Origin: a virus
Lineage: Duplodnaviria; Caudoviricetes
Virus record (IMG/VR): IMGVR_UViG_3300030012_001987
Span: 1 to 58,459 of that record
DNA length: 58,459 bases
Reading direction: 5' to 3' (one strand)
Position numbers and translations under genes: made by a program. Below the pieces are notes generated by a model that worked only from the letters and a program-made list of their open reading frames with translations, searched no databases and was not told where the DNA came from. Shown here in pieces: positions 8,645 through 50,958 of this stretch (position 1 is the first letter of the stretch; each line of letters begins with the position of its first letter).

Positions 8645-8648
8645 GCTA

Positions 8649-9437
8649 TCACCAATCCCTGCAAGCCATGCATCTAGGGGAGTTGTCACCGCCCTTGCAA
8701 GTGGAACACTTGTGTCTAGCCCTAAATGATTTTCTCCTTTTGCCTGACCTCTTACCTGATACGGTTACTCCCCTCTGTCCCCAATGAACTCGCTTGTATC
8801 CTCCACCGGGTTTGCTGACACACTTCATCCACTTCTTGCCTTTGGCAGTTGAACTGGTCTTCTTCGTTGGCCCCTTGCATTGTGCTTTGACGAGAGCGAA
8901 CCACTGTACACTAGGTTTGTAGAATAGTTTCCTGATTGCGGTTGTCGAACTTCCCTCATTCTCCAACATCGTGAAGACCTCCCTTATGTCGTCGGGGATG
9001 TCATCTTGGTCAATGACTTTGTTGTTTGAGTCAAATTGTATGGGGTTGAATCCCTGTCTCTCAAACACAGGGACACCTGCTGGCTTTGCCGCTCCAACTA
9101 TTGGTCTGTTGCTGTGCATGTCAATGACTTTGTTAGATATCCAACTACCAGCACCCCTTGTCTCTTCCTTGCTGAGACCAGATTCTTTCGCATGACTCTT
9201 CAAGCCAGTCAAGAGATAGATGTTCTTGTATGGTGCGATTCCTTGAACTGCAATTGGCTTACCATCTTCCACTGTTGGATAGTATGCGATGTAATACTTG
9301 GGGTCTACTTTACCAAATGGAGTATTGGTAAGCATCTGGTATCTCTCTGCTCTTGTTTGGTAATCTATGCCATGCTCTGCAAAACGTGCTTTGACCTCAT
9401 CTTCCGACAATGGAGGTGAAATCTGAAACTCTGCCAT
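8649..9437 (-). CDS. Modular protein: possible GNAT-like N-domain + basic Cys-rich C-module (RRKSFRARHKC)
   Basis: ETRGAGSWI and VFERQGF resemble GNAT motifs A/B; WFALVK lies at the domain boundary. Confidence 0.6.
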   Translation of the reverse strand: MAEFQISPPLSEDEVKARFAEHGIDYQTRAERYQMLTNTPFGKVDPKYYIAYYPTVEDGKPIAVQGIAPYKNIYLLTGLKSHAKESGLSKEETRGAGSWISNKVIDMHSNRPIVGAAKPAGVPVFERQGFNPIQFDSNNKVIDQDDIPDDIREVFTMLENEGSSTTAIRKLFYKPSVQWFALVKAQCKGPTKKTSSTAKGKKWMKCVSKPGGGYKRVHWGQRGVTVSGKRSGKRRKSFRARHKCSTCKGGDNSPRCMACRDW

Positions 9438-19808: not shown

Positions 19809-20273
19809 CGTTCGGACTACGATGACACCTATTAATCGAACGAACTTCTACCTTTTGCACACTGGATAAAAGCATTATACCATTGTTTTTCAGAAATTGT
19901 CACGGAATTTTTTTAGCACTTGCGCGATTTTATTTTTTTTGTTTATTCTATTTCCAGAATAAGCATTGTGTTGTTTTTAATTTCTTCTTGTTTAACTGCT
20001 TGATTCTTTTTTTCTGTAGTTTTTTACTTGTAAGTAAAAATTTGTATGTTTCTATTTGTATCAAAGGCTTTTTTTCAAGGATTTTATTCATTCTTGATTA
20101 AATTCAGCATTTAAAATGCACAACAGAAAACAAATAGAAAAAAAAATTTGAAAAGCAAAGCCATATGGTTGTGACTTTGTTCCAACCCTATTGAATCAGG
20201 TCAAAAGACCGTCATCGTTAGCAGATGAACAGTGAAGCATATCACAAACACCATTATCATATTCCTTTTCATT

Positions 20274-20447
20274 TTATATGCCCTCGTATCTGTCCTTTTC
20301 TGCTTGTAGTGCTGATTTGAACCTATCACGCTTGAAGTTCGGGTTTGTCTCTGACAGTCTGACTATCATCCACTCTTCTTGAACCTCATCAAGGTTGAGT
20401 TCTGCCATCAGGCCAACTAACCAATTGAAATGCCTTCTCTGAAACAT
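20274..20447 (-). CDS. Small hypothetical early protein (MFQRRHF...NPNFKRDRF)
   Basis: ATG 20447 overlaps the upstream stop (TGATG). Confidence 0.6.
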   Translation of the reverse strand: MFQRRHFNWLVGLMAELNLDEVQEEWMIVRLSETNPNFKRDRFKSALQAEKDRYEGI

Positions 20448-20620
20448 CAGTTGCCCTCCTTCTCGTACTGTTGGGAGGGGTCTTCGTGTCCACACTTGAA
20501 AAGACAGTGTTCACCGTCAAACCCACAGTCCTCACAGTAAGCATCCTCAATTAAGCCAAGGTAAGCCCCGGTTATTTCCAAGGATACCCCACAACATTCG
20601 CATTCCATATCGTAATACAT
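20447..20620 (-). CDS. 57-aa zinc-finger protein
   Basis: Manual translation MYYDMECECCG...CEDCG...; ATG 23 nt downstream of the TATA-like box of palindrome copy 2. Confidence 0.6.
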   Translation of the reverse strand: MYYDMECECCGVSLEITGAYLGLIEDAYCEDCGFDGEHCLFKCGHEDPSQQYEKEGN

Positions 20621-20711
20621 CAACTAGGCGTATTCTCAATATCTTATAGGGTGCGTTTACAAAGTCTACTTACCATATGGTAGTAGGACTTTGGCTAACT
20701 ACCTTGTATTT

Positions 20712-21443
20712 CTTAGGAACGTCTGGAAACAGTGGAAGCAATTTCATGTTTCGACGTTGGAGGGACTGGCATTACTGCGTGGAGTGTTCAACTAGTATTC
20801 TCCGCGACTTACACCACAGTTATCGCATTGCGAGTAAGCAATCTTGTCGGGCCTTACCCCGTTTGGCTTCTTGTTTCCTTCAGTTCCTATAGGAATGTGC
20901 TGATGTCTTGATAAGGGGTCTTCTCATACTTCATAGCGGGAGTTTGCGCGAACTCAAACTACTACTCTATGTACATCGACTTACCCTTATCTGATGCCTA
21001 AGCGAAAGGACATCACTTTCGCGTCTTTGTCTCTAACCCTCTCCATGGGTATCAACAGCCAACTTCTCTCTGTCAAGTTTCAGAAGGCCGACATTCGGAA
21101 TTAAAGGAGTGTAAAGGGAACGTCAGGAGTAGAGGACATCATCTCGGAGGTGTTGGGAAGGGAGTTCACTCAAGACCTCAACCTTCGACCAAGCGCACCT
21201 CTAGTGTCTTAGCATCCATCAGTTCCGTGTGGAATGTGATTGGTGGTAGCCGGGGCTAATGTATACCCGGAAGTTTCCTGTCCTCCTACATAATTGCAGA
21301 ATTACCGAAACCGCCAATATTAGACTCGTTAGTGTCCTTTCAACGACTCCTATCTCTAGGTGTGATTGCCCCACGACAGGGAATATTGCACGTTACCCCG
21401 GAGGAGGGGCATTCCGTCACTACCGTACTAGTCCGTCAACTAG
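20712..21443 (-). ncRNA. Candidate large structured non-coding RNA (about 730 nt)
   Basis: No credible ORF; lies downstream of promoter-like copy 3; several hairpins. Confidence 0.45.
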
Positions 21444-21531
21444 CAATAAGGGCATGTGTAATTGTCTTATGAGGTGCGCATACAAAGTTTGCTTACCATA
21501 TGGTTGTGCTTTGCAGAACCCCTATTGGAAC

Positions 21532-21618
21532 CAAGCCCCGAATGATATTCAGTGCGCCCCTCCTTGAATCCCATGGGTAAGGGATGGGGGGCGGCGAATC
21601 ACCTATCACCGGGGCTTG
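21532..21618. other. GC-rich long hairpin (small RNA or terminator)
   Basis: CAAGCCCCG/CGGGGCTTG outer stem with inner GCCCC/GGGGC and ATCCC/GGGAT stems. Confidence 0.5.
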
Positions 21619-21621
21619 AGT

Positions 21622-21795
21622 TCACTCTTCGGCGTAGCCGTCAAACCATTGACCACGCCTCTTCAGGTCTGAACAAGTGCTACCGGATGTCTCCGGGTCT
21701 CTGCAATGCTCTTGAGCCTCTTCAAGAGTAAGTCCCCTCTTGATAACTCTGTCATTTCCTTCAAACCTGAATCTTATTATTTTGTATGTCGTCAT
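21622..21795 (-). CDS. Small hypothetical early protein (GLTLEEAQEHC...WFDGY)
   Basis: ATG 21795, 24 nt from the TATA-like box of copy 4 (leaderless). Confidence 0.65.
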   Translation of the reverse strand: MTTYKIIRFRFEGNDRVIKRGLTLEEAQEHCRDPETSGSTCSDLKRRGQWFDGYAEE

Positions 21796-21896
21796 GCTAG
21801 GGTCTTGAATCACCATCTCTTAAGGTAGCGTCTACAAAGTTGCACTACCATATGGTGGGAACGCTTTGAGGGACCACCTTGAGAAGTGGAAGGATT

Positions 21897-22292
21897 TTAC
21901 TCCTCCTCACGACTCTTTGCGTGTTTCCTCTCAAAATCTCTCATTTTTCCCTCTTGCAATCGAACCAACCAGTTCTTGAACTCGGTGTTGAACTTCCGGA
22001 CATCCCAGTTCGGAGTATTGCAAGACCAATCGGCCTCAGCCAATCTCTCACAGAACTCAAGCGTCATAATATCGTAGAACTCACCCATGTCGAATATCTC
22101 GTTGGCTAGGTTGACCATGAGCATTCTTCGCCTGAACTCAGCAGGGGTCATTTTGGTTCCGTATCTGTCCCCTATGTGACCAACACCCGCTTGAGTCGCC
22201 AACATGCCAAAGCCGAAGCCGTTGACTAGTGAAATCTCTCGACTAGTGAAGCCCTTGTCAGGCCCATTCTCAATTCCAACTATTAGAGGCAT
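21897..22292 (-). CDS. Hypothetical early protein
   Basis: 131-aa ORF, TAATG-coupled. Confidence 0.65.
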   Translation of the reverse strand: MPLIVGIENGPDKGFTSREISLVNGFGFGMLATQAGVGHIGDRYGTKMTPAEFRRRMLMVNLANEIFDMGEFYDIMTLEFCERLAEADWSCNTPNWDVRKFNTEFKNWLVRLQEGKMRDFERKHAKSREEE

Positions 22293-22474
22293 TAAAGGTT
22301 CATCTCCCTGAATGCGACTAGAGCGGCTTTCAACTCTGCGAGTGATTCCGCTAGGTCATCACCACGAACTCTTAGGCTCTTGATGATAATCACGTGGTCT
22401 GAACCAGACTTAGAATGCCCAACTTCCAGTTCGTACTTGTATGGCTTTATCATTTCCTTTGCTTCTGTTATCAT
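22292..22474 (-). CDS. Hypothetical early protein
   Basis: 60-aa ORF, ATGA-coupled. Confidence 0.6.
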   Translation of the reverse strand: MITEAKEMIKPYKYELEVGHSKSGSDHVIIIKSLRVRGDDLAESLAELKAALVAFREMNL

Positions 22475-22707
22475 TCTTCTTCATCTCCTGTTAATAGCAT
22501 ATCTTTCTTGTATTCTGCTAGTGTAACCCACTCGGTCTTAACGACTAACGACAATCGCCTCATGCTTCCATAGACTTGTTCAGCAAATTCACCGAGGCTT
22601 TCCCAGTATTCGACTAGTTCTCGTTCACTGTCGAAATAGACAGTTGTTGTTCTCTCAATCATCCCACCGGGTTTGATGTAGTTCTCATATTCAATTTCTG
22701 TTCTCAT
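22471..22707 (-). CDS. Hypothetical early protein
   Basis: ATG 22707, about 21 nt from the left TATA-like box of copy 5. Confidence 0.6.
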   Translation of the reverse strand: MRTEIEYENYIKPGGMIERTTTVYFDSERELVEYWESLGEFAEQVYGSMRRLSLVVKTEWVTLAEYKKDMLLTGDEEE

Positions 22708-22856
22708 GCCCAACAGATTTTTTCAGCCTTATGAGGGTATGCCGACAAAGTGTCTTACCATATGGTAGTACAACTTTGTAAGTGCTACCTCATAAGACTT
22801 AGTTCAGGTTCTTGGATGTCGGGAAAGACACAAACTAACTAAGGAGAGAAAGAAAT

Positions 22857-23318
22857 ATGGCACAAATGGAAAATTGGAATGAATTTAAGGACACCGTGAA
22901 CAGTTTCCTAAAGGGTGGTTCAGTCGATGAGATGACTGCTTCCACCGTTGGGGTACTCATCGGTAAGGGAGACAACAACGTAACGACACAGACGAAGGTA
23001 ACCTCGGCAATCAAGACCATGCTAGAGGACTTCGATGGCGCACCAGTGGGTAGGGCATCCGCTCTATCTGGTGAGGCATTGACTACCTTCACTCAGGCAA
23101 GCGAGGCAATCAGGGCGGTTTCAACCGTCTTCGATTCTCACCCTGCACTACAGGGACTCGTTCTACCAAACGGGAGGAGCAAGATATCGCACTTCCCTGA
23201 TGGTGATGCATGGGCAGACTTCTTGATTGGAGTCATGCGCAGACACGCAATCTCAGCAAGCAAGGCTGGCTGGGATGGCTCTGCCGACAGCCTAGTGGCT
23301 TTTCAGGAGGCTAACTAA
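22857..23318 (+). CDS. Hypothetical protein, paralog of 25887..26399
   Basis: 153 aa, AAGGAG SD; downstream of the right arm of copy 5. Confidence 0.75.
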   Translation: MAQMENWNEFKDTVNSFLKGGSVDEMTASTVGVLIGKGDNNVTTQTKVTSAIKTMLEDFDGAPVGRASALSGEALTTFTQASEAIRAVSTVFDSHPALQGLVLPNGRSKISHFPDGDAWADFLIGVMRRHAISASKAGWDGSADSLVAFQEAN

Positions 23319-23539
23319 GTCGGTGATGTTGTCTTCCCGGCACTCATCAGGGTGAATGCCAAAGTCTCCCACCATATGGTATCAACTTTTAATCTCAGAA
23401 ATAAACTTGGAAAATGGTACATTCATCCGCGGGGCGCGTTTAAAAGGGTTTTAGCCAAACCCCTACTGAGAATCCTGACTCGCTTCTTTCTGCGAGTTAT
23501 TCCTAATGTATACTTAACCCACTCTACTCTTTAGTTAAA

Positions 23540-23922
<383 letters not shown>

Positions 23923-24375
23923 ATGGCATGGAAAAAGAAAACTGAAAGTGAAAGTGAAAATGAAATAGAAGAGATGGTTGAAAATTTCAGAGAGGAGTAT
24001 AAGCCAACTCTAGGACCGAAGGCAGAGGTGACAACCCAGCCCTTCAATGGTATGCAACACATGCAACCAGTAAAGAAGGAAGTGAAGAAAATGACAAGAA
24101 CAAGTCAGACAAGAATAGAACAAGTAATCGAAGAAATAAAGATGATGCTCTTGGAGAAGAACGAGCAGTATGGGGATTCGGCATTGAGTCCGAACCGCAT
24201 ATTCTCCAAGGCATCCACGAATGAACAAATCAAAGTCAGAATTGACGACAAGTTGAATCGCCTAATGCTAGGCAATGATTCAATAGAAAGCGATGAGGAT
24301 GTTATCAGGGATTTGATAGGATATCTCATATTACTCCTAGTGTCGTATGACCTGCAAAGGACAGGCGACGCTTGA
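23923..24375 (+). CDS. DUF1599 / nucleotide-modification-associated domain 1-like protein
   Basis: KNEQYGDS...RIDDKLNRL...DLIGY pattern in the C-terminal half. Confidence 0.7.
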   Translation: MAWKKKTESESENEIEEMVENFREEYKPTLGPKAEVTTQPFNGMQHMQPVKKEVKKMTRTSQTRIEQVIEEIKMMLLEKNEQYGDSALSPNRIFSKASTNEQIKVRIDDKLNRLMLGNDSIESDEDVIRDLIGYLILLLVSYDLQRTGDA

Positions 24376-30232: not shown

Positions 30233-30439
30233 ATGAAATTGAGAATAATGAATGACACAGGACACACTGTACTAGATGACGTAACTGTTTCGGATGTCAT
30301 CGACCAAATCAACGACCATCCCACACACTGGGTTTTCGTTGAGGGCGAGATGGTATCGAGACAGGAAATCCCGAACATCAGTTGGGATGAGGTTGATACT
30401 GTCAACCTAATTCCGGCCATGGTCGGAGGCTCACTCTGA
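30233..30439 (+). CDS. Ubiquitin-like (ThiS/MoaD/SAMP-type beta-grasp) protein with GG-SL C-terminus
   Basis: 68 aa; VFVEG...V...DTVNLIPAMVGG matches the beta-grasp C-terminus; GGAG SD. Confidence 0.75.
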   Translation: MKLRIMNDTGHTVLDDVTVSDVIDQINDHPTHWVFVEGEMVSRQEIPNISWDEVDTVNLIPAMVGGSL

Positions 30440-30596
30440 GCCTAACTCGTTCTTACTGAGCAATGCTTAAGTGCAACTCTGCATAATTTGCCTAAGCATT
30501 ATAGGTCTGCTGAGTAACGCAAAAAACCCCAGCAACGGGGAAGATAGTTGTCAATCGGGTGAGAAGCCCGATAACCAAATTTTCGGAGAGAGAAGA

Positions 30597-32465
30597 ATGG
30601 AATTACAACAAGAAATATTGTCAGAAATAACAACGAACATGAAGTATGCAAAGTACTTGCCTCTTGAATTCAGGAGGGAATCTTGGAAAGAGATTGTAGA
30701 AAGGAACAAGGAAATGCACAAGAAGAAATTCGCACACATTCAGGGGTTTGACGAGAAGATAGATTATGTCTATGACAACTTCGTTCTAACCAAGAAAGTG
30801 CTACCATCCATGCGCTCCATGCAATTTGCAGGGAAGCCGATTGACTTGTCTCCGAATAGAATATACAACTGTGCTTACATGGCTATCGATTCTACGATAG
30901 CATTCTCGGAAGCCATGTTCCTGTTGCTGGGCGGCACAGGAGTTGGATACTCTGTTCAGAGACACCACGTATCAAAATTGGATACAATACAGAAGCCTAA
31001 TCCTGAGAGGACATACAGGCATCTAGTTGCGGATTCGATAGAAGGATGGGCTGATGCAGTCAAGGTATTATTTGACGCATACACAGGAGACAGGAGAACA
31101 ACACCAAGGTTCGACTACTCCGACGTAAGACCGAAGGGTAGTCAATTGAAGACTAGTGGTGGTAAAGCACCCGGCCCTGCTCCATTGAAGAAGTGCATAG
31201 TTACCATAGAGAACATGCTACTTAACATGGAAGATGGTCATCAAATTACACCAATCGAAGCACATGACATGATGTGCCACATCGCAGATGCAGTTCTTGC
31301 TGGTGGTATCAGAAGAGCCGCAATGATTAGTCTGTTCAATGCAGACGACAACGAGATGATTAACTCAAAGAATGGTCACTATTGGGAGACCAATCCACAG
31401 AGAGCGAGAGCGAACAACTCAGCAGTTCTCATCAGAGAGAAGTGCGAGAAGGAGTTCTTCGATGACTTGTGGAATAGAACCAGAGCCAATAAGACTGGTG
31501 AGCCGGGTATATTCTTCTCCAATGACAAGGATTGGGGAACAAATCCCTGTGCAGAAATTTCGCTGAAAAATCATCAGTTCTGCAATCTCTGCGAAATCAA
31601 TGTATCCACTGTCAGTAGTCAGAAGGATTTGGAAGAAAGAGTAGAAGCCGCAACCATCATAGGAACGATGCAAGCGTGTTACACTGACTTCCATTATCTA
31701 CGACAGTCTTGGAAGAATACAACAGAGAAGGAAGCACTCGTCGGTATATCAATGACTGGCATCGCAAGTAATGCCCTCAAGGACTTGAATCTTGAGAGAG
31801 CATCAGATTGCGCAGTCATCGTCAACAAGACATATGCCGACATGTTAGGAATCAACTCAGCCGCAAGAGTGACCTGTGTGAAACCTGCTGGTACTACCAG
31901 TCTGGTACTCGGCACTTCCTCTGGAATACATGCTTGGTACTCCGAGTATTACATACGAAGAATCAGAGTGATGAAGAACGAGGCAATGTATCTGTATCTG
32001 AATGAGATGCTACCTGAGTTGGTAGAGGATGATGAGTGGGATGACAACCAAGCAATACTTGCTATCCCACAGAAAGCACCGAAGGGTGACATCATCACAA
32101 GAGAGGAGTCTGCTCTATCCATGTTGGAGAGATTGAAGAAGTATTCAATCGAGTGGGTGAGAAGGGGACATATCAGTGGGGTCAACTCACACAATGTCTC
32201 CGCCACTGTTAACGTCAGAGATGACGAATGGGAGACAGTGAAGGAATGGATGTGGGACAACAGAGAATACTACAACGGTATCTCTGTCCTGCCATTCGAC
32301 AACGGTGTGTACACACAAGCACCGTTTGAGGCTATTGAGAAAGAACAATACGAGGATATGTTCGCCAAATTACAATCAATTGACCTAACACAGGTCAAGG
32401 AATACAATGATAATACCAATCTGCAAGGCGAAGTTGCTTGTGCAGGTGGTGCATGTGAAATATAA
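30597..32465 (+). CDS. nrdJ: Class II (adenosylcobalamin-dependent) ribonucleotide reductase
   Basis: YNCA, TNPCAEI, TCVKPAGT, C-terminal ACAGGACEI; no small subunit gene seen. Confidence 0.9.
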   Translation: MELQQEILSEITTNMKYAKYLPLEFRRESWKEIVERNKEMHKKKFAHIQGFDEKIDYVYDNFVLTKKVLPSMRSMQFAGKPIDLSPNRIYNCAYMAIDSTIAFSEAMFLLLGGTGVGYSVQRHHVSKLDTIQKPNPERTYRHLVADSIEGWADAVKVLFDAYTGDRRTTPRFDYSDVRPKGSQLKTSGGKAPGPAPLKKCIVTIENMLLNMEDGHQITPIEAHDMMCHIADAVLAGGIRRAAMISLFNADDNEMINSKNGHYWETNPQRARANNSAVLIREKCEKEFFDDLWNRTRANKTGEPGIFFSNDKDWGTNPCAEISLKNHQFCNLCEINVSTVSSQKDLEERVEAATIIGTMQACYTDFHYLRQSWKNTTEKEALVGISMTGIASNALKDLNLERASDCAVIVNKTYADMLGINSAARVTCVKPAGTTSLVLGTSSGIHAWYSEYYIRRIRVMKNEAMYLYLNEMLPELVEDDEWDDNQAILAIPQKAPKGDIITREESALSMLERLKKYSIEWVRRGHISGVNSHNVSATVNVRDDEWETVKEWMWDNREYYNGISVLPFDNGVYTQAPFEAIEKEQYEDMFAKLQSIDLTQVKEYNDNTNLQGEVACAGGACEI

Positions 32466-32748
32466 CGAAAAGGCGTGGTTATCAATAGAAGACGAAATCG
32501 TAGATTCAATGGTAAATGCGGGTGCAAAGGACAGCATCCGCACTTGGTATTGGAGATACAGAGAAGAACACATTCAACTCGCTGAGTTGAGACATGGGAT
32601 ATTGAGACTGATAAAGCAAGGGTATTCGGCTTTGAAGGACATGGATGACATACAAAACCTGTATGACAGAAAGGAATACTATAGAATAAACAAACAAGAA
32701 TATGGTGATTACTATGAAAATGAAATTTACAATACCGAGAACAGGTGA
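32455..32748 (+). CDS. Hypothetical protein
   Basis: ORF track 32407..32748; GTG 32455 after AGGTGG. Confidence 0.5.
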   Translation: MKYNEKAWLSIEDEIVDSMVNAGAKDSIRTWYWRYREEHIQLAELRHGILRLIKQGYSALKDMDDIQNLYDRKEYYRINKQEYGDYYENEIYNTENR

Positions 32749-33961
32749 TGGTAGACAGGAAGACACGACATCGTTCCTGATGCGTGTCAATGGTGTTAAA
32801 TGGAAACCCGGCATGAGTCCGAACAACTTTGGTGAGAGAACTCTGAGAGTTCCCCAATTGGATATAAGCAGTAGGTTCTCCAAGACCCTAGACCCCATGA
32901 CAGAGAACATCGCTTACACAATCAGGCAATGCTTGATTCCAAACACACACAGAAGAAGAAGCAGGTACTACTCTTACGACAATAGTGATTGGGACAAGTG
33001 GACTGCAATTATGACCTTCAAGAGAGATGATGGGGATGCCATGATATGGATACAGAAGAACAACACTGTGTATACCATGAACAGTCAGAGAATGTCATTG
33101 CACGACATATCACTAGCCTTGGCTAAGATAATCTTTAGGAGTGTGGTGGATAGAAGCGCAGTCAGTCTCGATGAGTACATAGACAGAGTGATTGAAACAC
33201 CACCACATGTGATGTATGCTCTAGAGAACAGAACGCCATACGTGTTTTGGGATGACGGTACGAAATGTGAAGTCAGAATCAACACGAAGTTGGTAGGCAA
33301 GAAGGATGTTGCACTTGAGATATCCGAAGGAGTATGGGGTTCGATGTCCGTATCAGAACTGAATACATTCGTGAACACGTTCGGAATGAACTCAAGCCGC
33401 TCCAAGAAGTGGTATCGAATATCACCCAAAAGACTCTGGACAGCACTCATGGGTGAAGAGCCATCAGAGAGTCAGAAGAAACTGATGATTGCATGGTTGC
33501 TACAGAATCGTACTCAGAAGATGGTCGAGGAGAGAGCATACGAGTTGGTCTACGAACTGGCCGATGAGTTTGAGAATATCCAAGTGGTGATACATGAGGG
33601 ATACATGGCTCTGTTCGTCAGGGGTATCCATGCTGATTGGATGATTGCTGATGCCAACAAAGGTTGGAAGAAAGGTCATCAGAATGTCAACACCTTCTAT
33701 TGGGATGGTCGCAAATGGGCAGGGCCGGTTTGCATTGACAACCTACATCACAACTCTAGCATTGGTGACCAACTCTCATCAAGAGCAATGATGCTGATGA
33801 ACGACAAAGGTGCTGGTGAGATGATATACACACTCAGGGGACTACAACCAATGGTGGACGAGTGGTATGGTAAGCATCGATACGATAGAGTCCTGATTCC
33901 CTATGACAAGAGGAAGGATTACAGATTCAAGCAGATACAACATGGAGCGTTGAACAAATGA
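32714..33961 (+). CDS. Hypothetical protein, possible divergent E2-like C-terminal domain
   Basis: About 415 aa; HQNV...GPVCIDNL resembles UBC HPN...G.IC.DIL; E2 call is weak. Confidence 0.6.
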   Translation: MKMKFTIPRTGDGRQEDTTSFLMRVNGVKWKPGMSPNNFGERTLRVPQLDISSRFSKTLDPMTENIAYTIRQCLIPNTHRRRSRYYSYDNSDWDKWTAIMTFKRDDGDAMIWIQKNNTVYTMNSQRMSLHDISLALAKIIFRSVVDRSAVSLDEYIDRVIETPPHVMYALENRTPYVFWDDGTKCEVRINTKLVGKKDVALEISEGVWGSMSVSELNTFVNTFGMNSSRSKKWYRISPKRLWTALMGEEPSESQKKLMIAWLLQNRTQKMVEERAYELVYELADEFENIQVVIHEGYMALFVRGIHADWMIADANKGWKKGHQNVNTFYWDGRKWAGPVCIDNLHHNSSIGDQLSSRAMMLMNDKGAGEMIYTLRGLQPMVDEWYGKHRYDRVLIPYDKRKDYRFKQIQHGALNK

Positions 33962-34869
33962 ATCCTGTGACGATTGGTGAGTCATGCAAGGAATGTGGTA
34001 GCAAGGACTTCACCTACATCGAGAGATTGGGTGAGAAGACCTGTGACGAATGTGGGCTTGTGCTTGTAGTCAATCCATTTGAGGAAACGACGCATATGAT
34101 TGCGATAAACGACGATGACAAAAGAGGCAGGTCAACTGACCGCTTGGGTTCCATCATCAGGAAATCAGACGCATATGGTAACAAGGACAAGTTCGCTCTC
34201 TATAGGGAACAAGTCAGGAGTCAACCTGAATCTGAGACAGATAGAACGGCGAGACTGCTCATCAACAGCACACTCTCGTACTACAACGTGTCAAGGGACT
34301 TGAAGAAGAGAGCAGAGAAATACTATGAGATGATGAAACGAGATTTGTTTCGTGGTTTGGATGTAGAGAGGAGATGCGCCTCTCTCACATTCTATGTTCT
34401 CAAGGAAGCAGACATCGTATGTAACATACAGGAGCATTCTAGGAGAACGCTAGTGAGACAGAATGACATCTCAAGGTTCGCTAGGAAAATCGCTAGGCAT
34501 CAGAGGAACTCTACTGTGTTCATAACAAGGAACCATGAGCAGAGAGCGCAAACTCTGATGTCAAGAATGGATGTGGACATAGATGACTATTTCAGAGCGA
34601 ATGCATTGAGAGTTGTCGAGTATGTCTCAAGGCATGTAGAGTCATTGGATATGAGATTCGCTGACACCATGTTAGCGGCTTGCATTTGGATGACAGGTCA
34701 GATGATGAGTAGACATGATATAACACAGTCTGCCATATGCAAGCACTGGAACTCTTCGCACGTTGGTTTGAGGGGAGCAATGGTGACATTGTGCGATATA
34801 TTCCAAGTAGATAGGAAGACATTATTTGGTATGCAAGTCGAGGACTTCGTATCAGGTGTGCGCTATTGA
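33958..34869 (+). CDS. tfb: Transcription initiation factor IIB (TFB)-like protein
   Basis: N-terminal CKECG...CDECGLV Zn ribbon followed by two cyclin-like repeats. Confidence 0.85.
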   Translation: MNPVTIGESCKECGSKDFTYIERLGEKTCDECGLVLVVNPFEETTHMIAINDDDKRGRSTDRLGSIIRKSDAYGNKDKFALYREQVRSQPESETDRTARLLINSTLSYYNVSRDLKKRAEKYYEMMKRDLFRGLDVERRCASLTFYVLKEADIVCNIQEHSRRTLVRQNDISRFARKIARHQRNSTVFITRNHEQRAQTLMSRMDVDIDDYFRANALRVVEYVSRHVESLDMRFADTMLAACIWMTGQMMSRHDITQSAICKHWNSSHVGLRGAMVTLCDIFQVDRKTLFGMQVEDFVSGVRY

Positions 34870-34976
34870 AAGGAGAGGAGTATTGCAAGTGTGGTAGGAA
34901 GAAGTATCGTCGTTCCTACACTGTATGCGATAGATGCTACTTGAGACAAAAGAGAGCAGAAAGACGGAGAACTTGA
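34866..34976 (+). CDS. 36-aa Zn-finger peptide
   Basis: Manual translation MKGEEYCKCGRKKYRRSYTVCDRCY...; TTG overlapping the TFB stop. Confidence 0.4.
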   Translation: MKGEEYCKCGRKKYRRSYTVCDRCYLRQKRAERRRT

Positions 34977-35062
34977 AATGGGACTGGTCAAGGAGTTGTA
35001 TTTTGAGATGAAGGAAAGAGGATTGACCTTGACATTAAAACAATATATGGAGATGAAAAACA

Positions 35063-35662
35063 ATGAGAAAGATAATGATAATAGGAGCAGGTGGAATAGG
35101 TAGTTACCTCATTCACAACCTGAATAGAATAAACCAGAGATGCAGGACTGATAAGCCCGGTATACATCTATACGACATCACGGTGTTCGATGATGACACG
35201 GTTGAGAAGAGCAATCTTGGAAACCAGATGTACAGCGAACATGATGTTGGTCAGTTGAAGGTAGACACATGGTCTGCTAGTTGTAATGCACAGCCATATC
35301 AAGTCCTGCTTGACAAGCAACTAAAGGGATATGATTTGGTGGTTTGCTGTGCAGACAACCTTGCAGTACGTCGTCTTCTATACCGACAGGGGTATGGAGA
35401 CTCTGCTAAGATTAAGTGGCTAGATTTACGCGCACAGGGTAGGAATGCGGCACTTATCTCATACAAGGTGGATGAGAACTTGGTGGATGCTCTGCTGAGT
35501 GGGCCGGATGGTTCCTTCTCCTGTCAGGCAGAGGGTTGGGATGGTCTTGCATCCGAGATGAACGCGATGCACATGGCTATCGCTGGTATTGCGGCACAGT
35601 GGATTCAGAGATGGTGGAACGACCATGATGATGTGGCTGACAAGATAATTATGAATGTGTGA
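35063..35662 (+). CDS. ThiF/MoeB/E1-family activating enzyme
   Basis: GAGGIGS, DDDTVEKSNLGNQ, VGQLKV, CADNLAVRR, WLDLR; Cys in FSCQ. Confidence 0.88.
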   Translation: MRKIMIIGAGGIGSYLIHNLNRINQRCRTDKPGIHLYDITVFDDDTVEKSNLGNQMYSEHDVGQLKVDTWSASCNAQPYQVLLDKQLKGYDLVVCCADNLAVRRLLYRQGYGDSAKIKWLDLRAQGRNAALISYKVDENLVDALLSGPDGSFSCQAEGWDGLASEMNAMHMAIAGIAAQWIQRWWNDHDDVADKIIMNV

Positions 35663-36221
35663 TAGTATGCCTATAGGAGTAACGAAATTCAACCACAAGA
35701 AACTGAAAGAGGTTCTCTCTGAGTTCTTTGATAATATGAATGTCGGTGACATGTGTACGATGAATGAGATATTGGAATACCTAGCGACTGTACCGTTGGG
35801 TAGGATGAAAGACGTACATCCAAGAGCGGCGATATCAAACCGCAAAGTGGGCATAAAGCAACTGTATACGTCTAGAGATTACTTCGCTATGGCATGTAGA
35901 CAGTTACCAAACGTCGTAAGAGGAAGTCTCTACTCGCGTGGTAGCAAGTACATGATTCCACTGGTGTTGTTCGTCAAGACGAATGAGAACAGGGATACAG
36001 TCTGCTTCAACTGCGATGAGTACATCGTTGGTGGTGCTAAGGACTACGTTGCCACACACCCAAAGGGGAAGATGCCTGTGATTGCTAGGCACATCATGTG
36101 CAGGGAATGCTACATACATGAGGTGAAGATGTTCAATCCGTATGATACCGGGTATTTTCAACACTATGATGAACAATATGAGAACTGGGAAAAGAAAAGA
36201 GAATGGAGTGAGGAAGAATGA
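35655..36221 (+). CDS. Hypothetical protein with C-terminal CxxC...HxxCxxC Zn finger
   Basis: CFNC...HIMCREC. Confidence 0.65.
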   Translation: MCDSMPIGVTKFNHKKLKEVLSEFFDNMNVGDMCTMNEILEYLATVPLGRMKDVHPRAAISNRKVGIKQLYTSRDYFAMACRQLPNVVRGSLYSRGSKYMIPLVLFVKTNENRDTVCFNCDEYIVGGAKDYVATHPKGKMPVIARHIMCRECYIHEVKMFNPYDTGYFQHYDEQYENWEKKREWSEEE

Positions 36222-36460
36222 GTAAAGAAGATAGTAACATAGATGATTTAACAGAGGAAGATTTGGATAAAATAATGACTATAATATCCACGGATGGGTA
36301 TTATCTGCAAGCAGAGATAGTGAAGGTGACATGTCCTGTTTGCGGAGAGGAGTTCTTGGGAACGAAGAGACATGCTGGTGGTTTCATAGTGGGACACCAA
36401 GCATACCATGAGTTCCAGAACAATCAAGACGCACTAATGGTGCAAATGGGAGGACAATAA
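36218..36460 (+). CDS. Small C2H2-type Zn-finger protein
   Basis: CPVCGEEF...HQAYH. Confidence 0.65.
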   Translation: MSKEDSNIDDLTEEDLDKIMTIISTDGYYLQAEIVKVTCPVCGEEFLGTKRHAGGFIVGHQAYHEFQNNQDALMVQMGGQ

Positions 36461-36461
36461 A

Positions 36462-37121
36462 ATGAATGAATATGAGAAAAAAGAAGATAAGACAAGACTG
36501 GACATAAAGGTAAGTGGTAGTAGCATGGATGAAAACAACACAGGGGTTGTACCGAGAGGACCGTATAATGAGATTGATTTGGAAGTAAAGAATCCACATT
36601 GGAAAGATAACATTAGGGAGGCTTACAAACAGATGAAGGATGATATCGTCTGGTTGTATCCTAACAATACGACTGAGACTTTCCTCAGTGTGATTTGGAA
36701 TGCATCGAAGAAGGCATTCGACATACCAAGAGAAGTACAGGTGATGGTGGATGCGAATGAGAACCTGTACATCAGTTACGGGACACCCGGTTTCGTATCC
36801 TTTGAGGGACACGAAGACGAGTTAATCAATGGCGCACCGATGAAGTTGCCCATCAAATGCTGGATACACACACATCCTTTCGGTACTGCCTTTTGGAGCA
36901 TGACCGATTGGAAATCTTTGAAAACGTGGCAACCTGTCCTAGACTCGGCTATCGTACTAGGTGACAACGAGTATCTTGCTTATGACTTGAAGACCAAGAT
37001 TGGCAAGAAGGTGTTATTCGGTTTGATGGAGCCACCGGAGACAGTGATAGACTACAAGACAGAGGAAGAGGAACTGTCTGTAATAGAAATAGATGAACAA
37101 ATAAAAAAGGAGGAGGAATGA
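36462..37121 (+). CDS. JAB/MPN (JAMM) metalloprotease
   Basis: REVQV upstream Glu and HTHPFGTAFWSMTD, an exact HxH-x7-S-x2-D motif. Confidence 0.85.
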   Translation: MNEYEKKEDKTRLDIKVSGSSMDENNTGVVPRGPYNEIDLEVKNPHWKDNIREAYKQMKDDIVWLYPNNTTETFLSVIWNASKKAFDIPREVQVMVDANENLYISYGTPGFVSFEGHEDELINGAPMKLPIKCWIHTHPFGTAFWSMTDWKSLKTWQPVLDSAIVLGDNEYLAYDLKTKIGKKVLFGLMEPPETVIDYKTEEEELSVIEIDEQIKKEEE

Positions 37122-37215: not shown

Positions 37216-37599
37216 ATGAGGAGTTTGGTAATACTACTTCTCGTATCATCCTCTCTTGCTGGATGTGCAGAGATGATACCTGACCCACCAGTTGAGGGTA
37301 ATGACCCAATCTGGACTACGGAGTATCACAACTTCACATACGAGGATACCAACAACAGTACAATGCCAGTCATCACGTTTGGTGACAATGGCACGTTGGT
37401 AGAGATATTCTCTGCTAGTGCGATACTGCACAACGAGACAGTCAACTTGACTGTTGACATGAAGCCGTTCTTCTCGGTGAACAACGTATCTTTCCAACAG
37501 GGACATGCACCCACCATGGGTGAAGTCACGTTGAGTCTGATAGAACTGAGAGGATATGACTACAACTGCACAGTTGTCTATAGGTTGTGGGAACTGTGA
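37216..37599 (+). CDS. Predicted lipoprotein
   Basis: Hydrophobic signal ending in an LAGC lipobox; several N-x-S/T sequons. Confidence 0.7.
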   Translation: MRSLVILLLVSSSLAGCAEMIPDPPVEGNDPIWTTEYHNFTYEDTNNSTMPVITFGDNGTLVEIFSASAILHNETVNLTVDMKPFFSVNNVSFQQGHAPTMGEVTLSLIELRGYDYNCTVVYRLWEL

Positions 37600-37997
37600 A
37601 ACGAGCCGTGACTGTTAGATTCCCTGCACCATTACCTGCTGAGATTCCCTGCCCGATATGTGAGGGCAACAAGTGTAAAGTTTGTAAGATGCAAGGAAGA
37701 ATCGAGGTCACGGTTGATGCCAAGGTTCCTATCCACAGACATCTGATAGTTCAGTATGTTGCTGAGAATCTCGGTGATATCTCTTTTGAACTGACTAAGC
37801 ACTTCGGTCTGGTTCCCGATGTTGAGACAGAGGATATGTTTCAAGTCGGAGATAGCACATACGAACTAGTCAAGATTAGCAGTCTAGGTGGTGTGTGTTG
37901 GGTGGCTCATAGAGTGGATGAGTTGGAGTCACCTAGATACTTCAAGTCACTGAAACAACTACAGGAATTCAAAGGAGGAATACAAGATGGACAATGA
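37587..37997 (+). CDS. Zn-finger protein (DnaJ-type CxxCxG repeats)
   Basis: CPICEGNKCKVCKMQG. Confidence 0.65.
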   Translation: MGTVKRAVTVRFPAPLPAEIPCPICEGNKCKVCKMQGRIEVTVDAKVPIHRHLIVQYVAENLGDISFELTKHFGLVPDVETEDMFQVGDSTYELVKISSLGGVCWVAHRVDELESPRYFKSLKQLQEFKGGIQDGQ

Positions 37998-47035: not shown

Positions 47036-47227
47036 ATGGAGTGTGTAATTTGTAAAGGAGAAATAGAAGAAACAGAATACGGTTGGAAGCACGGTCACAA
47101 TGCGGAACCTGTGAAGAATGGAAGGTGTTGTAGCCGATGTCATTGGGAACTTGTAATGCCAACAAGAATAGTAATGGAGATGAAATATAATGATAATAGA
47201 CAAACTGAAAGAAGGGATAGGACTTAG
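47036..47227 (+). CDS. Small Zn-finger protein (CVIC...GHNAEP...CCSRC)
   Basis: GAGGTGA SD; CxxC pairs. Confidence 0.65.
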   Translation: MECVICKGEIEETEYGWKHGHNAEPVKNGRCCSRCHWELVMPTRIVMEMKYNDNRQTERRDRT

Positions 47228-48950
47228 GTGGAGAGACCCCAAGACTCTTGAAAGAGAGAGTAAGGAGGTCTCCTTCCATGAGTTTCCACCACACTTCTTC
47301 GTGAAGAAGAAACATGGGTGGACTGAACACGGTGACAGGATTGAATATCAAGATGGTCAAGAGAAAGTAATGCGGTTCAAGGACAAGTGGGGAAACTTCA
47401 ATTTAGATGTGAAATTCCAACACGGCGACTACAAGAACCTAGAAGGCGATGAACTAGTCAAGGTTACTTGGAGTCCACCAAGGCCATCGTACTCGTATCG
47501 TTTGAGGAATAACTTTCATGCATCATACGAAGCAGATGTCTCACACCACTACAGGTACGCTGTTGATTGTATCGATGAGATGCCTGAGTACCAGATGCGT
47601 AAGTGGTATTGGGACATGGAGTGGATGCAAGGCGGTGAGCATGATGGTGCTATCACTTGTATCGTGGTGTATGATAACTACATGAAGAGATATCGTACTT
47701 ACTTTTGGCAACCAGAGATGGAATCATTCTTGGAACAAGGATATGACATTTCGACCTCTCGTCTGTTTGACTCTGAGGAGAAGATGCTGATATGCTTCCT
47801 GTCTGATATGATAGATGATGACCCTGACATGCTTATCTCTTGGTTCGGTTGGAAGTTCGATTTGCCGAAGTTGATTGAGAGAATGGTGCATCATGGGGTT
47901 GACCCCAAGTTACTGTCACCATGGAACGAGGTCACTGGTGTCTCTTGGAAGAACAACAAACCAATCATGGATGAGGGAACGGTAACTTCCTACTCTCCGA
48001 TAGCACAACCAATCAAAGGTAGGATTTGTGTTCCACTTGACTTGGCTTTTGAGAGACAATGGAACGATGCACAGAGAGGAACACTAGCATCGATGTCACT
48101 TGACTACATCTCCGAGACTGTACTAGGTCGCAAGAAGTTAGTCAGTGAAAAGTTTCCTGATAAGAACGAGTTCTTTGCAAGAGGGTGGCTTGAGGACACA
48201 CAGAGATACGTTGAGTATGCTAAAGTAGACGTTGAACTATTAGTCCTAATAGATGAAATGCAACACACAACAGAAGCAATCGTATCACTCCAAAGGCTTC
48301 TCAAGGCTCCCTTCGATGCTTGCTTCTATGCGAGCAACATGGGTGGAATATACTTCATGCGAAATGCCCCTTGGAAGGCTCCTACGGGCGAGAAAGGACA
48401 GCGGGTGTCCTACGACGGCGCGATGGTGTATGACCCTCTCAGCGAGTCCACAAATGGACTCCATTTAGGTGTCGCGGCATTCGACTACGCACAATTGTAT
48501 CCATCTATGATAATCGCTAGGAATATCAGTTGGGAGACCGTATCGGAAGAACCAACTGCCTTTGCAGTCAATATCAAGACACCAAAAGATTTCAGCGAAG
48601 TAAAGGAATACGATATGAAATATTTCAAAGTGGATGAACTTGGCCTACTACCAAGAGCAGTTCTAGAATTAAAGACACTAAGGAATGAATACAAATCATT
48701 GGCTAGGAATGCCGAGTCTGAAAGTGACTACAACAAGTGGAACAACAATCAACTCGCAGTCAAGAGGCTCATGGCTTCCTTCTACGGCATCATTGCGTAC
48801 CAAGGATTCGGATGGGCCAATGTGGAACTTGCCGCTTGCATCACTGCTAGTGCGAGGGAAGCCATACGTCTAGCCGCTTTCAAAGTCAAGGAGATGGGGT
48901 TTAGGTCAAAGGAAATACCCTTTTTCAAGGTCAAGGAGATGAGCGAATGA
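47190..48950 (+). CDS. polB: Family B DNA polymerase, N-terminal part (exonuclease, motifs A and B)
   Basis: WDME, FDLPKL, YAKVD; DYAQLYPS; QLAVKRLMASFYG; ends before motif C. Confidence 0.92.
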   Translation: MIIDKLKEGIGLRWRDPKTLERESKEVSFHEFPPHFFVKKKHGWTEHGDRIEYQDGQEKVMRFKDKWGNFNLDVKFQHGDYKNLEGDELVKVTWSPPRPSYSYRLRNNFHASYEADVSHHYRYAVDCIDEMPEYQMRKWYWDMEWMQGGEHDGAITCIVVYDNYMKRYRTYFWQPEMESFLEQGYDISTSRLFDSEEKMLICFLSDMIDDDPDMLISWFGWKFDLPKLIERMVHHGVDPKLLSPWNEVTGVSWKNNKPIMDEGTVTSYSPIAQPIKGRICVPLDLAFERQWNDAQRGTLASMSLDYISETVLGRKKLVSEKFPDKNEFFARGWLEDTQRYVEYAKVDVELLVLIDEMQHTTEAIVSLQRLLKAPFDACFYASNMGGIYFMRNAPWKAPTGEKGQRVSYDGAMVYDPLSESTNGLHLGVAAFDYAQLYPSMIIARNISWETVSEEPTAFAVNIKTPKDFSEVKEYDMKYFKVDELGLLPRAVLELKTLRNEYKSLARNAESESDYNKWNNNQLAVKRLMASFYGIIAYQGFGWANVELAACITASAREAIRLAAFKVKEMGFRSKEIPFFKVKEMSE

Positions 48951-50009: not shown

Positions 50010-50089
50010 CTGACGAACGAATAGAATTCTTTTGGATACAAAGACAGTGGCCTAAGCAAATGGAAGAAGAGAATGGTGAGGAAGAATGA
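50006..50089 (+). CDS. 27-aa peptide within the polB gap
   Basis: Manual translation MTDERIEFFWIQRQWPKQMEEENGEEE, bounded by identical 14-nt junctions. Confidence 0.45.
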   Translation: MTDERIEFFWIQRQWPKQMEEENGEEE

Positions 50090-50958
50090 AGGTAGTTTAC
50101 GGACACACTGATTCAATCTACTGTACTGTTGATTCAGTAGAGCAAGCAAAAAACGTGCTTGAGGAATTGAACGAACACGTTAGAAGTTATTTTCCAAACC
50201 TGCTAGAGTTGAATGAGCATCCAGTCGTCATAGAGTTTGAGAAATACTTTGAGAGTCTAGGTGTCGGAGCGACGAAGAACAGGAACGCTGGTCTGATTAC
50301 TTGGAAGGATGGCAAGTTCTTGGATAAGAAGGAATTCGTTATGACAGGGTTTACTGCTAAGAGATTATCAGAAACCAAACTTGCGAAGGATACTCAGTTG
50401 GCTGTACTAAACATGTGGGTCGAGAATAATACTGAACAAGAAATAGCGGATTTTTTGAGAGATAGATATAATCAAGTTTTATCAGGACAGATTCCGATTA
50501 GTGAAGTATTGAAGCGTAGTCGATATAGAGAGGCTAGGTTTTCCGTCAAGTGTGGTAACTGCAAGAGGAAGAAGACATTGGATGAGTTGACCAGAGGGCC
50601 ATGTTGCAACAACATGAACCTACAGACTCTTGAGGGTAAGAGGCCAACAGTTGGTTCTGGTGTCGAGGGAGTCGTGTACTACAACAGTGTGAACAAGATT
50701 CCCATCGAGGACTCGTATCTGTTCCTCAGAGTCAAGGAGAATCATCTGAACTACTGGCATCCCATCAAGCAGGATTACGTCAAGCCAAACTATGTGGCAG
50801 GTTTGACTGAGGCTGACTTCGCTGTGTATCAGGCTGATTGGGCGCACTATGCGGATTCAGTCATCAAGAAGGCAGAGCCAGTTTTCAGAGCGATGGGTTG
50901 GGACACAATGCAGATAAAGAAAGATTTGAGCCAAAGCACGTTGGGGGAGTGGTTCTGA
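50086..50958 (+). CDS. polB: Family B DNA polymerase, C-terminal part (motif C, thumb, PIP box)
   Basis: Starts MKVVYGHTDS; IEFEK, KNRNAG; C-terminal QSTLGEWF. Confidence 0.9.
   Translation: MKVVYGHTDSIYCTVDSVEQAKNVLEELNEHVRSYFPNLLELNEHPVVIEFEKYFESLGVGATKNRNAGLITWKDGKFLDKKEFVMTGFTAKRLSETKLAKDTQLAVLNMWVENNTEQEIADFLRDRYNQVLSGQIPISEVLKRSRYREARFSVKCGNCKRKKTLDELTRGPCCNNMNLQTLEGKRPTVGSGVEGVVYYNSVNKIPIEDSYLFLRVKENHLNYWHPIKQDYVKPNYVAGLTEADFAVYQADWAHYADSVIKKAEPVFRAMGWDTMQIKKDLSQSTLGEWF

Follow-up and report, generated by a model that had tools for sequence, protein, structure and literature searches.

Does a virus of marine archaea carry its own ubiquitin-like tagging pathway, from modifier and activating enzyme to conjugating enzyme and protease? 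The question is raised by IMG/VR record IMGVR_UViG_3300030012_001987, here called the window (the whole record, 58,459 bp; completeness estimate 61%), in which genes for a ubiquitin-like protein (Ubl), an E1, a JAB-type protease and a candidate E2 are spread across 7 kb. My answer, held with slightly better than even confidence, is that they form a conserved, virus-encoded module for Ubl activation and conjugation in magrovirus-type viruses of Poseidoniales (Marine Group II). The genes concerned are the following:

30233..30439, plus strand: pro-Ubl, a 68-aa beta-grasp protein with the C-terminus IPAMVGG-SL, directly upstream of the ribonucleotide reductase (RNR) gene
32702..33961, plus strand: p419, a multidomain protein; the model of its C-terminal domain (residues ~271-400) looks UBC/E2-like, and Cys344 in it is invariant; candidate E2
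35063..35662, plus strand: minimal E1/ThiF-type adenylating enzyme, 199 aa; Pfam ThiF match at E 1.1e-16; invariant Cys154 in GSFSCQ
36218..36460, plus strand: p80, 80 aa, between E1 and JAB; CPxC...H...H zinc motif, GTKRHAGGF stretch and a C-terminus of GG plus one residue
36462..37121, plus strand: JAMM/MPN+ metalloprotease (JAB), 219 aa with an extra N-terminal region; predicted tail-trimming, possibly deconjugating enzyme

In the pathway proposed here, the 68-aa Ubl would be made as a precursor with 0-3 residues beyond an invariant GG, and the JAMM protease would trim this tail, and perhaps that of p80 as well. The E1 would adenylate the exposed Gly and probably load the Ubl onto Cys154 of GSFSCQ, from which it may be handed to Cys344 in the UBC-like C-terminal domain of p419 and then joined to lysines of viral or host targets; the protease may later reverse the conjugation. 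I infer these chemical steps from established E1, E2 and JAMM enzymes and from the bacterial operons classified by Iyer et al. (2006; PMC1779556). A role in host takeover or counter-defence is speculation.

An earlier reading of the window from its letters alone (the original prediction) had proposed such a system, with a candidate E2/E3. The finding is real and was mostly well read: the Ubl, E1 and JAB genes are all where it placed them on the plus strand, and its E2 assignment is moderately supported. p80 and a host counterpart, both described below, are additions to it.

The predicted modifier, activating enzyme and protease

An IMG/VR scan with the E1 alignment found 278 E1-encoding contigs, and profile hidden Markov models (HMMs) were run against the best 80 loci, whose E1s are 48-90% identical. 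Family searches bring the Ubl near the sulfur-carrier families: it matches Pfam ThiS (PF02597) at E 1.4e-3 (19.6 bits, under the 22.5-bit gathering cut-off), and NCBIfam ThiS and SAMP1 at E 6.5e-3 and 0.03, while its profile found nothing relevant among PDB sequences. An AlphaFold2 model from a 47-row alignment (predicted local distance difference test, pLDDT, 86.5; predicted template modelling score, pTM, 0.71) has the beta-grasp order, with strands at residues 2-7 and 10-14, a helix at 19-28, strands at 32-36 and 39-41, a helix at 43-48, a strand at 56-61 and then a floppy tail (pLDDT <50 at residues 66-68). Foldseek gave no match at E ≤ 1e-3 with this model, and the best 50 matches listed are all ubiquitin (E 5e-3 to 2e-2); Ubl, MoaD and ThiS head the VIA matches, with TtuB and CysO also among them. 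Across the structure searches, ubiquitin, Fubi, MoaD, ThiS, TtuB, CysO and a bacterial Bil-type Ubl are returned at modest scores, as expected because the protein has only 68 residues. Its modelled fold and flexible Gly-Gly tail place it in the ubiquitin-like beta-grasp superfamily.

The masked GG of the original prediction is seen throughout the family: the GG is invariant in 60/60 viral copies and is followed by 0-3 variable residues (C in 12 copies, Y in 11, NQ in 7, CY in 4, SL in 3, GNQ in 3, none in 3, and others). An invariant GG with a variable tail reads as the signature of a precursor needing trimming. The pattern exceeds chance. Among the 3165 plus-strand open reading frames (ORFs) of at least 40 aa in the 80 related loci, 178 have a C-terminal GG with 0-3 residues after it; 60 of these belong to the Ubl family (60/60 members) and 60 to the p80 family (60/60), the next largest family contributes 9, and Ubl and p80 are the sole families in these loci that are consistently GG-ended. 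The Ubl is under purifying selection (median ratio of nonsynonymous to synonymous substitution rates, dN/dS, 0.22). One practical consequence concerns the diGly proteomics that had been suggested as a check. The last Lys or Arg before the GG, read from the sequence, is R43, so trypsin would leave a remnant of 23 residues (QEIPNISWDEVDTVNLIPAMVGG-Lys) and not diGly, and the proposal would fail with this enzyme.

The second component reads as a Rossmann adenylation domain of the E1/ThiF/MoeB superfamily. Its Pfam ThiF match (61.2 bits) lies above the 28.1-bit cut-off, and a 12-row profile finds Uba4 (3.9e-9), Cap2 (5.6e-9), MccB (1e-8), MoeB (3.2e-8) and PaaA (6.7e-4) in the PDB, as well as Uba1, Uba5 and NAE1, the leading matches spanning 4e-9 to 1e-7. 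GAGGIGS, K66, D98 (of ADN) and GSFSCQ are invariant in 12/12 E1 sequences, and the first three align with the equivalent positions of Uba4; SFSCQ is found in 118/120 representatives of the family. Cys154, 56 residues past the ADN Asp, is the predicted thioester Cys. The 199-aa protein starts at the Rossmann fold, without a peptide-clamp N-terminal domain, and contains no rhodanese domain, no CxxC zinc pair and no domain beyond ThiF. The NCBIfam scores for UbaA, MoeB and ThiF are all far under their cut-offs; with UbaA at 6.9e-8 and 32 bits against a cut-off of 450 bits, the viral E1 is no UbaA orthologue. PADLOC gave weak CBASS E1-E2 matches over residues 1-75 only, from a library that may lack Bil models. 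The best NCBIfam match is the ThiF of PRTRC systems (TIGR03736; 1e-17); I rejected this assignment, as the score of 64.3 bits is below the curated cut-off of 144.75 bits and the partner families have no match at E ≤ 0.1 among eight neighbouring proteins.

The protease carries the exact HxH-x7-S-x2-D motif that was first noticed, HTHPFGTAFWSMTD. As a single sequence it reaches Pfam Prok-JAB at just E 0.14, and all 14 matches of a single-sequence PDB search are JAMM deubiquitinases. An 11-row profile improves the best PDB match to 4.8e-4, and a 41-row profile (34 viral and 7 host sequences) to 3.8e-6 (AMSH-LP); all 24 PDB matches of the latter at E ≤ 0.1 are AMSH-LP, STAMBP, Sst2, CsRpn11 or Rpn11, in alignments mostly limited to the 32-residue motif region. 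E91, H136, H138, S146 and D149 are invariant in the 41 sequences, so the catalytic Glu is likelier to be E91 than the Glu of FEGHEDE. Motif and profile together identify the protein as a predicted JAMM/MPN+ metalloprotease.

The set is conserved across related viruses, as the original prediction had asked to be checked. JAB is present in 78/80 loci, and both misses end within 510 bp past E1. The Ubl is found in 60/80, including 57/57 loci with more than 5 kb upstream of E1, and in all 20 loci without it less than 4.9 kb lies upstream; p419 is found in 73/80, including 67/67 with more than 3 kb upstream, its seven misses having less than 1 kb. Thus, every locus that reaches far enough has all that it could show (Ubl 57/57, JAB 78/78, p419 67/67). 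Protein databases hold 765 relatives of E1 and 470 of p80. The window itself is a magrovirus-type tailed archaeal virus, a call made because of its gene content, its relatives (marine viral contigs of 85-103 kb) and the nearest cellular homologues of its E1, which are in Poseidoniales (Marine Group II) genomes.

What would such a Ubl be used for, if not conjugation? The main rival takes it for a sulfur carrier: JAB would expose the GG or release a C-terminal amino-acid adduct, a host sulfurtransferase would thiocarboxylate the E1-adenylated Ubl, and the sulfur would feed a host or viral reaction, for example tRNA or cofactor thiolation. The only sequence-family contacts of the Ubl, ThiS and SAMP1, fit this reading, as do MoaD, ThiS, TtuB and CysO among its VIA matches and a single Cys or Tyr as the commonest tail (together 23 of the 60). 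The tails of CysO-Cys and QbsE, and the CysO/Mec+ and QbsE/QbsD pathways, are parallels to such a single-residue tail and to the triad of genes. Ubl/E1/JAB triads tied to sulfur metabolism are listed in Table 1 of Iyer et al. (2006; PMC1779556), and they count against conjugation. Set against all this, the E1 lacks a rhodanese domain, and in virus and host alike the system is tied to a UBC-like domain that has an invariant Cys and no role in sulfur transfer. The lack of sulfur-transfer genes, on which the original prediction had relied, also stands: Pfam scans of the 41 window ORFs found no ThiG, MoaE or thiouridylase families, and sulfur-acceptor families, including CysM-type and TtuA/Ncs6-like enzymes, are missing both from these and from the 46 ORFs in the region of a complete 98.4-kb relative (G001, collinear with the window) that is absent from the window. 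Furthermore, rhodanese-less, JAB-fused E1s fall in E2-containing operon types in the same survey (Iyer et al., 2006; PMC1779556). I consider the sulfur carrier unlikely.

A candidate E2 and a Poseidoniales counterpart

Is there an enzyme to receive the activated Ubl? The original prediction had put forward the reading frame at 32714..33961 as an E2 or E3. A 42-row alignment of p419 has one invariant Cys, C344, within GP[IV]CIDN...GDQ...ND...TL. In the model (pLDDT 81.4) the last domain comprises a helix at residues 272-289, five strands, Cys344 and helices from 354. The UBC fold consists of alpha1, a four-strand meander, an active-site loop and alpha2-alpha4, and the modelled order of the p419 C-terminal domain appears to fit it. 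Cys344 comes right after the last strand of the domain, a position read from the model itself. At least 31 of the 50 VIA matches listed are E2, UEV or RWD domains, all over residues 271-400, and the highest-probability Foldseek matches, themselves weak, are Ubc13 and UbcH5. Sequence searches return very little: p419 found no family in Pfam (0/42 members), PHROGs, PADLOC, NCBIfam or Atlas, its profile gave two chance-level matches only against the PDB, and BFVD holds only three unnamed homologues. Nor do the 46 ORFs of the G001 region absent from the window include any E2 family.

Supporting a place for p419 in the system, a homologous system exists in the hosts. Scanning one genome per prokaryotic species with the E1 alignment yielded 77 loci. 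Poseidoniales encode a diverged E1, 32-36% identical to the viral one, with a homologous JAB alongside, which is the gene after E1 in 14 loci and part of an E1-JAB fusion of ~400 aa in 10; L125, L126, L136 and L175 encode E1 and JAB as separate or overlapping ORFs, plus a Ubl. A homologous Ubl is present in 12 archaeal-type loci, ends in GG plus 1-2 residues where checked, and lies directly upstream of E1-JAB in those fusion loci that have it. The host loci are chromosomal, being flanked by housekeeping genes (GDP-mannose dehydratase, GST, hydroxyacyl-CoA dehydrogenase, methylmalonyl-CoA mutase). A quick E1 tree, built from 21 of the 63 distinct viral E1s and 39 genome rows, separates a viral from a host clade (Shimodaira-Hasegawa-like approximate likelihood ratio test, SH-aLRT, 78 and 98), and I draw no direction of transfer from it.

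In eight of the host loci, a gene 1.4-2 kb away encodes a protein that is found by the p419 C-terminal profile (E 3e-4 to 0.018); its length is 547-641 aa in seven, and in L144 the contig end interrupts it. The same profile has no match at E ≤ 1 in the other 66 genome loci. Profile-profile comparison of viral p419 with the host family gives 84.5% probability (E 6.9e-6, 161 columns), and the alignment pairs Cys, GD, ND and TL positions that are invariant in both, Cys344 corresponding to host Cys435. I include p419 in the system because its E2-like domain is linked to Ubl, E1 and JAB in an unrelated genomic setting, that of the host; this is the strongest argument for it.

Several observations weigh against a complete viral conjugation cascade. 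The Ubl is marginal by sequence, with a ThiS match at E ≤ 0.01 in just 5/47 family members. Of the E1 nucleotide-binding motifs once described as intact, GAGGIGS and the ADN Asp stand (both invariant), whereas the canonical Arg of NLxRQ is replaced, the window having NLGNQ and 120 E1 representatives having mostly NLTYQ (64), NLGYQ (18) or NLSYQ (10). The location of Cys154 relative to the crossover loop is read from sequence alone. For p419, the structural scores are weak in absolute terms, E2-type Pfam families are matched by 0/42 members and 0/150 representatives, the HPN motif is not conserved (upstream of Cys344 just Q327 is invariant), and UQ_con is found in 0/5 near-complete relatives. 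Type-A host loci have no Ubl within 8 kb. Finally, co-occurrence in collinear viral genomes is weak functional evidence, since core genes nearly all co-occur. Thus, of the E2/E3 assignment, the UBC-like model, the invariant Cys344 and the host homologue stand, whereas an E2 family match and the HPN motif are missing; the chances that p419 carries an E2-like domain are roughly even.

If the UBC look of p419 is coincidental, it would be an unrelated protein of the replication module, and Ubl, E1 and JAB would be complete for E2-independent tagging of the SAMP/Urm1 type. Archaeal SAMP conjugation is not known to require more than an E1. The weak structural scores and the missing family match agree with this, as do the position of the p419 gene in viral loci, 1.2-3.7 kb from E1 between RNR and TFB, and the type-A host loci, which have E1 and JAB and no clear p419 homologue (a protein in L106 reaches E 0.02-0.04 only). 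It does not agree with p419 C-terminal homologues 1.4-2 kb from the host operon in eight loci and in none of the other 66, with an invariant Cys retained in viral and host families, or with the concentration of E2/UEV/RWD domains (at least 31 of the 50 VIA matches listed) over one 125-residue domain. I judge E2-independent tagging improbable, and continue to favour a module in which p419 would act as the E2.

The genome scan also turned up some loci under unexpected labels. The magrovirus-like contigs L099-L101 are binned in bacterial metagenome-assembled genomes (MAGs) labelled Maricaulis and Altibacter, and the Poseidoniales-type Ubl/E1/JAB locus L126 in a MAG labelled Acidimicrobiaceae; these are apparent binning errors. 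L119 and L124 (Candidatus Methanoperedens) encode E1 relatives, matched by the viral E1 profile at E 1e-27 to 4e-25, which the quick tree places as the sister group of the Poseidoniales E1 clade; no JAB was detected beside them. A small acidic ORF of 77-79 aa without a family lies right behind E1-JAB or JAB in L122 (9074-9304), L129 (9071-9304) and L114 (9178-9414). Fusion-type host loci next encode a protein of 373-376 aa (L122 9404-10531, L129 9369-10487), also without a family, whose N-terminal CxxC...CxxC ribbon recalls TFB.

p80 and the surrounding genes

What is p80, the second protein with a GG end? Its C-terminus is GG plus exactly one residue in 60/60 viral copies (I in 33, V in 10, A in 8, Q in 7, T in 1, L in 1) and in 118/120 database representatives. 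C39, C42, H60, H64, G78 and G79 are invariant in 46 sequences, as is the GTKRHAGGF-like stretch, and the median dN/dS is 0.19. The p80 stop and the JAB start are at most 4 nt apart in 34/60 loci and the p80 start overlaps the E1 stop by 4 nt in 18/60, and p80 appears translationally coupled to both. It is detected (HMM E ≤ 1e-5) in 60/80 loci; of the 20 without it, 16 are the most divergent (L067-L091) and two end just past E1. No relatives were found in Pfam (E ≤ 10), by PDB profile search or in NCBIfam, and in Atlas p80 forms virus-only clusters, with no relatives outside these viruses. Some homologues carry the JGI label UPF0212/DUF555, which I rejected: p80 has no PF04475 match at E ≤ 10, and three control genomes pass the cut-off. 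A complex prediction of E1 with p80 (score 0.00, partner fold uncertain) speaks neither way.

Possibly p80 is a second, non-beta-grasp substrate of E1 and JAB, or an adaptor. A wider version of this idea has an E1/E2-like/JAMM pathway common to magroviruses and Poseidoniales with two GG-ended modifiers, the beta-grasp Ubl and a zinc-binding p80 unlike any Ubl; I regard it as quite unlikely. Alternatively, E1 would activate the JAB-trimmed C-terminus of p80 in the manner of the ThiF-like enzymes of some ribosomal peptide pathways, and the beta-grasp protein would have a separate role. The gene order suits peptide maturation, with p80 and not the Ubl coupled to E1 and JAB, and so do the constant GG+1 ending and the matches of the E1 profile to MccB and PaaA. 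However, JAB is retained in 18 of the 20 viral loci without detectable p80; among the loci of the genome scan p80 is undetected in the archaeal ones, its sole two hits being the magrovirus-like contigs L100 and L101; and the 199-aa E1 has no peptide-clamp N-terminal domain. Peptide maturation seems very unlikely to me, and Ubl conjugation remains the reading that I prefer.

One further gene lies within the cluster:

35655..36221, plus strand: p188, a variable insert with Cys-rich motifs between E1 and p80, sharing 8 nt with the end of E1 and 4 nt with the beginning of p80

It is present in only 2/80 related loci and has no family match, and its membership in the system is doubtful. Just downstream of JAB, p136 (37587-37997, plus strand) is kept in 70/80 loci at 31-91% identity and has an invariant CPIC-x4-C-x2-C zinc ribbon and no family. 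As a candidate E2 it was rejected, its sole match being a zinc-ribbon stretch that resembles a PheRS segment.

The minus-strand half of the window encodes portal, terminase and other virion genes, and the plus-strand half a replication set: class II RNR, a TFB-like factor, an ATP-dependent ligase, an RFC-like ATPase, a PD-(D/E)XK nuclease, PolB in two ORFs, an ERCC4 nuclease and an RNase H-like protein. The candidate tagging genes sit in this replication module, on the strand opposite to portal and terminase. RNR and TFB had been suggested as substrates, being interleaved with the system genes; the genomes are collinear, and interleaving is thus no evidence for such a role. The 44.7 kb of G001 absent from the window encode structural proteins, including a prohead protease, the capsid and the tail tube.

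At about 20000-24000 of the window the coding strand switches and both GC skew and AT skew change sign; no tRNA gene was found across the whole length of the window. The family B DNA polymerase consists of two plus-strand ORFs ~1.1 kb apart (47190-48950, 586 aa; 50086-50958, 290 aa) that match different parts of Pfam DNA_pol_B, for which a split gene, an intein or an inserted element are all possible. A PAP2-superfamily phosphatase-like protein (7655-8689, minus strand; Pfam 7.6e-13) lies amid the virion and packaging genes. In G001, a second protein with an ATP-dependent DNA ligase domain (21557-24196, the same as L094 3557-6196; 880 aa; 1.1e-27) opens the structural block, a region that the window is without.

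Significance and comparison with known systems

Cascades of Ubl, E1, E2 and JAB are known from eukaryotes, a few archaea and bacterial antiphage systems; for prokaryotic viruses, only isolated E1 genes are noted in the literature that could be searched. In the present case a candidate cascade with all its parts belongs to the core of a very abundant group of ocean viruses, is under purifying selection and has a diverged counterpart in the host. It opens the questions of whether prokaryotic viruses have a tagging pathway of their own, what its targets may be, and whether there is cross-talk between the virus and host pathways. The study of minimal cascades would also profit from an E1 of just 199 aa, a highly diverged E2-like domain and, possibly, a GG-ended substrate without a beta-grasp. 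If p80 is indeed a modifier, it would be the first of a new class of E1-activated protein modifiers, and if the pathway has two modifiers, the virus copy would compete with or retarget the host pathway in one of the ocean's most abundant archaea.

Within the searchable literature, the full Ubl/E1/JAB/E2-like set, p80 and the host counterpart are undescribed. The main texts of three magrovirus papers (PMC5434244, PMC11706807, PMC10160649) contain no mention of ubiquitin, ThiF, JAB, MoeB or adenylyltransferase, some of which their supplementary gene tables may list, and the text of a survey of archaeal Caudoviricetes (PMC8651126) does not mention ubiquitin, ThiF, JAB or MoeB, although its supplements or figures may list such genes. 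I found no literature linking magrovirus with ubiquitin. The RaFAH paper (PMC8276007), as far as its accessible part goes, counts MoeB/ThiF with the auxiliary genes that are most prevalent in archaeal viral genomes and connects it to ubiquitination, and the accessible part of an Asgard-virus preprint (10.1101/2021.07.29.454249) describes three E1-like genes in Nidhogg viruses. In those parts, both reports name the E1 alone, and the Ubl, JAB, E2-like domain, p80 and host counterpart go unmentioned.

Which known system, then, does the viral set most resemble? Iyer et al. (2006; PMC1779556) describe bacterial operons in which E2-like proteins and Ubls accompany rhodanese-less E1s, the latter often fused to JAB, and the closest are the Ubl/E2-like/JAB/E1 operons of type 6d. 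Unlike these, the present system is found in an archaeal virus and on archaeal chromosomes; its E2-like domain makes up the C-terminal third of a multidomain protein of 419 aa without an E2 family match; and the viral genes include RNR and TFB between them, together with an extra GG-ended zinc-motif protein. The type 6d operons were later named Bil.

The SAMP/UbaA/HvJAMM1 system of Haloferax is likewise archaeal and combines a beta-grasp modifier with a GG end, an E1 and a JAMM protease. The viral E1, however, has only 199 aa, without C-terminal zinc motifs, and the viral system has a candidate E2 and a Ubl tail that would need trimming. SAMPs are not known to be masked, nor SAMPylation to use an E2. 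A rhodanese-less E1 beside or fused to JAB is shared with CBASS Cap2/Cap3 and with the E1-JAB fusion operons (types 6a-6c of Iyer et al., 2006). The viral E1 profile has Cap2 as one of its best matches in the PDB, and the host version is itself an E1-JAB fusion. In contrast to CBASS, no cyclase or effector lies near the viral or host loci. Cap2 fuses an E2 to an E1 and conjugates the cyclase itself, and is not known to have a separate Ubl.

Finally, the TAPI (Ubl) and TAPK (JAB plus NlpC/P60) proteins of lambdoid and T1 phages offer a precedent for a virus-encoded Ubl with a C-terminal Gly and a JAB domain, as described by Iyer et al. (2006; PMC1779556). That pair is without an E1 and belongs to the tail module, whereas the present set has an E1 and belongs to the replication module.

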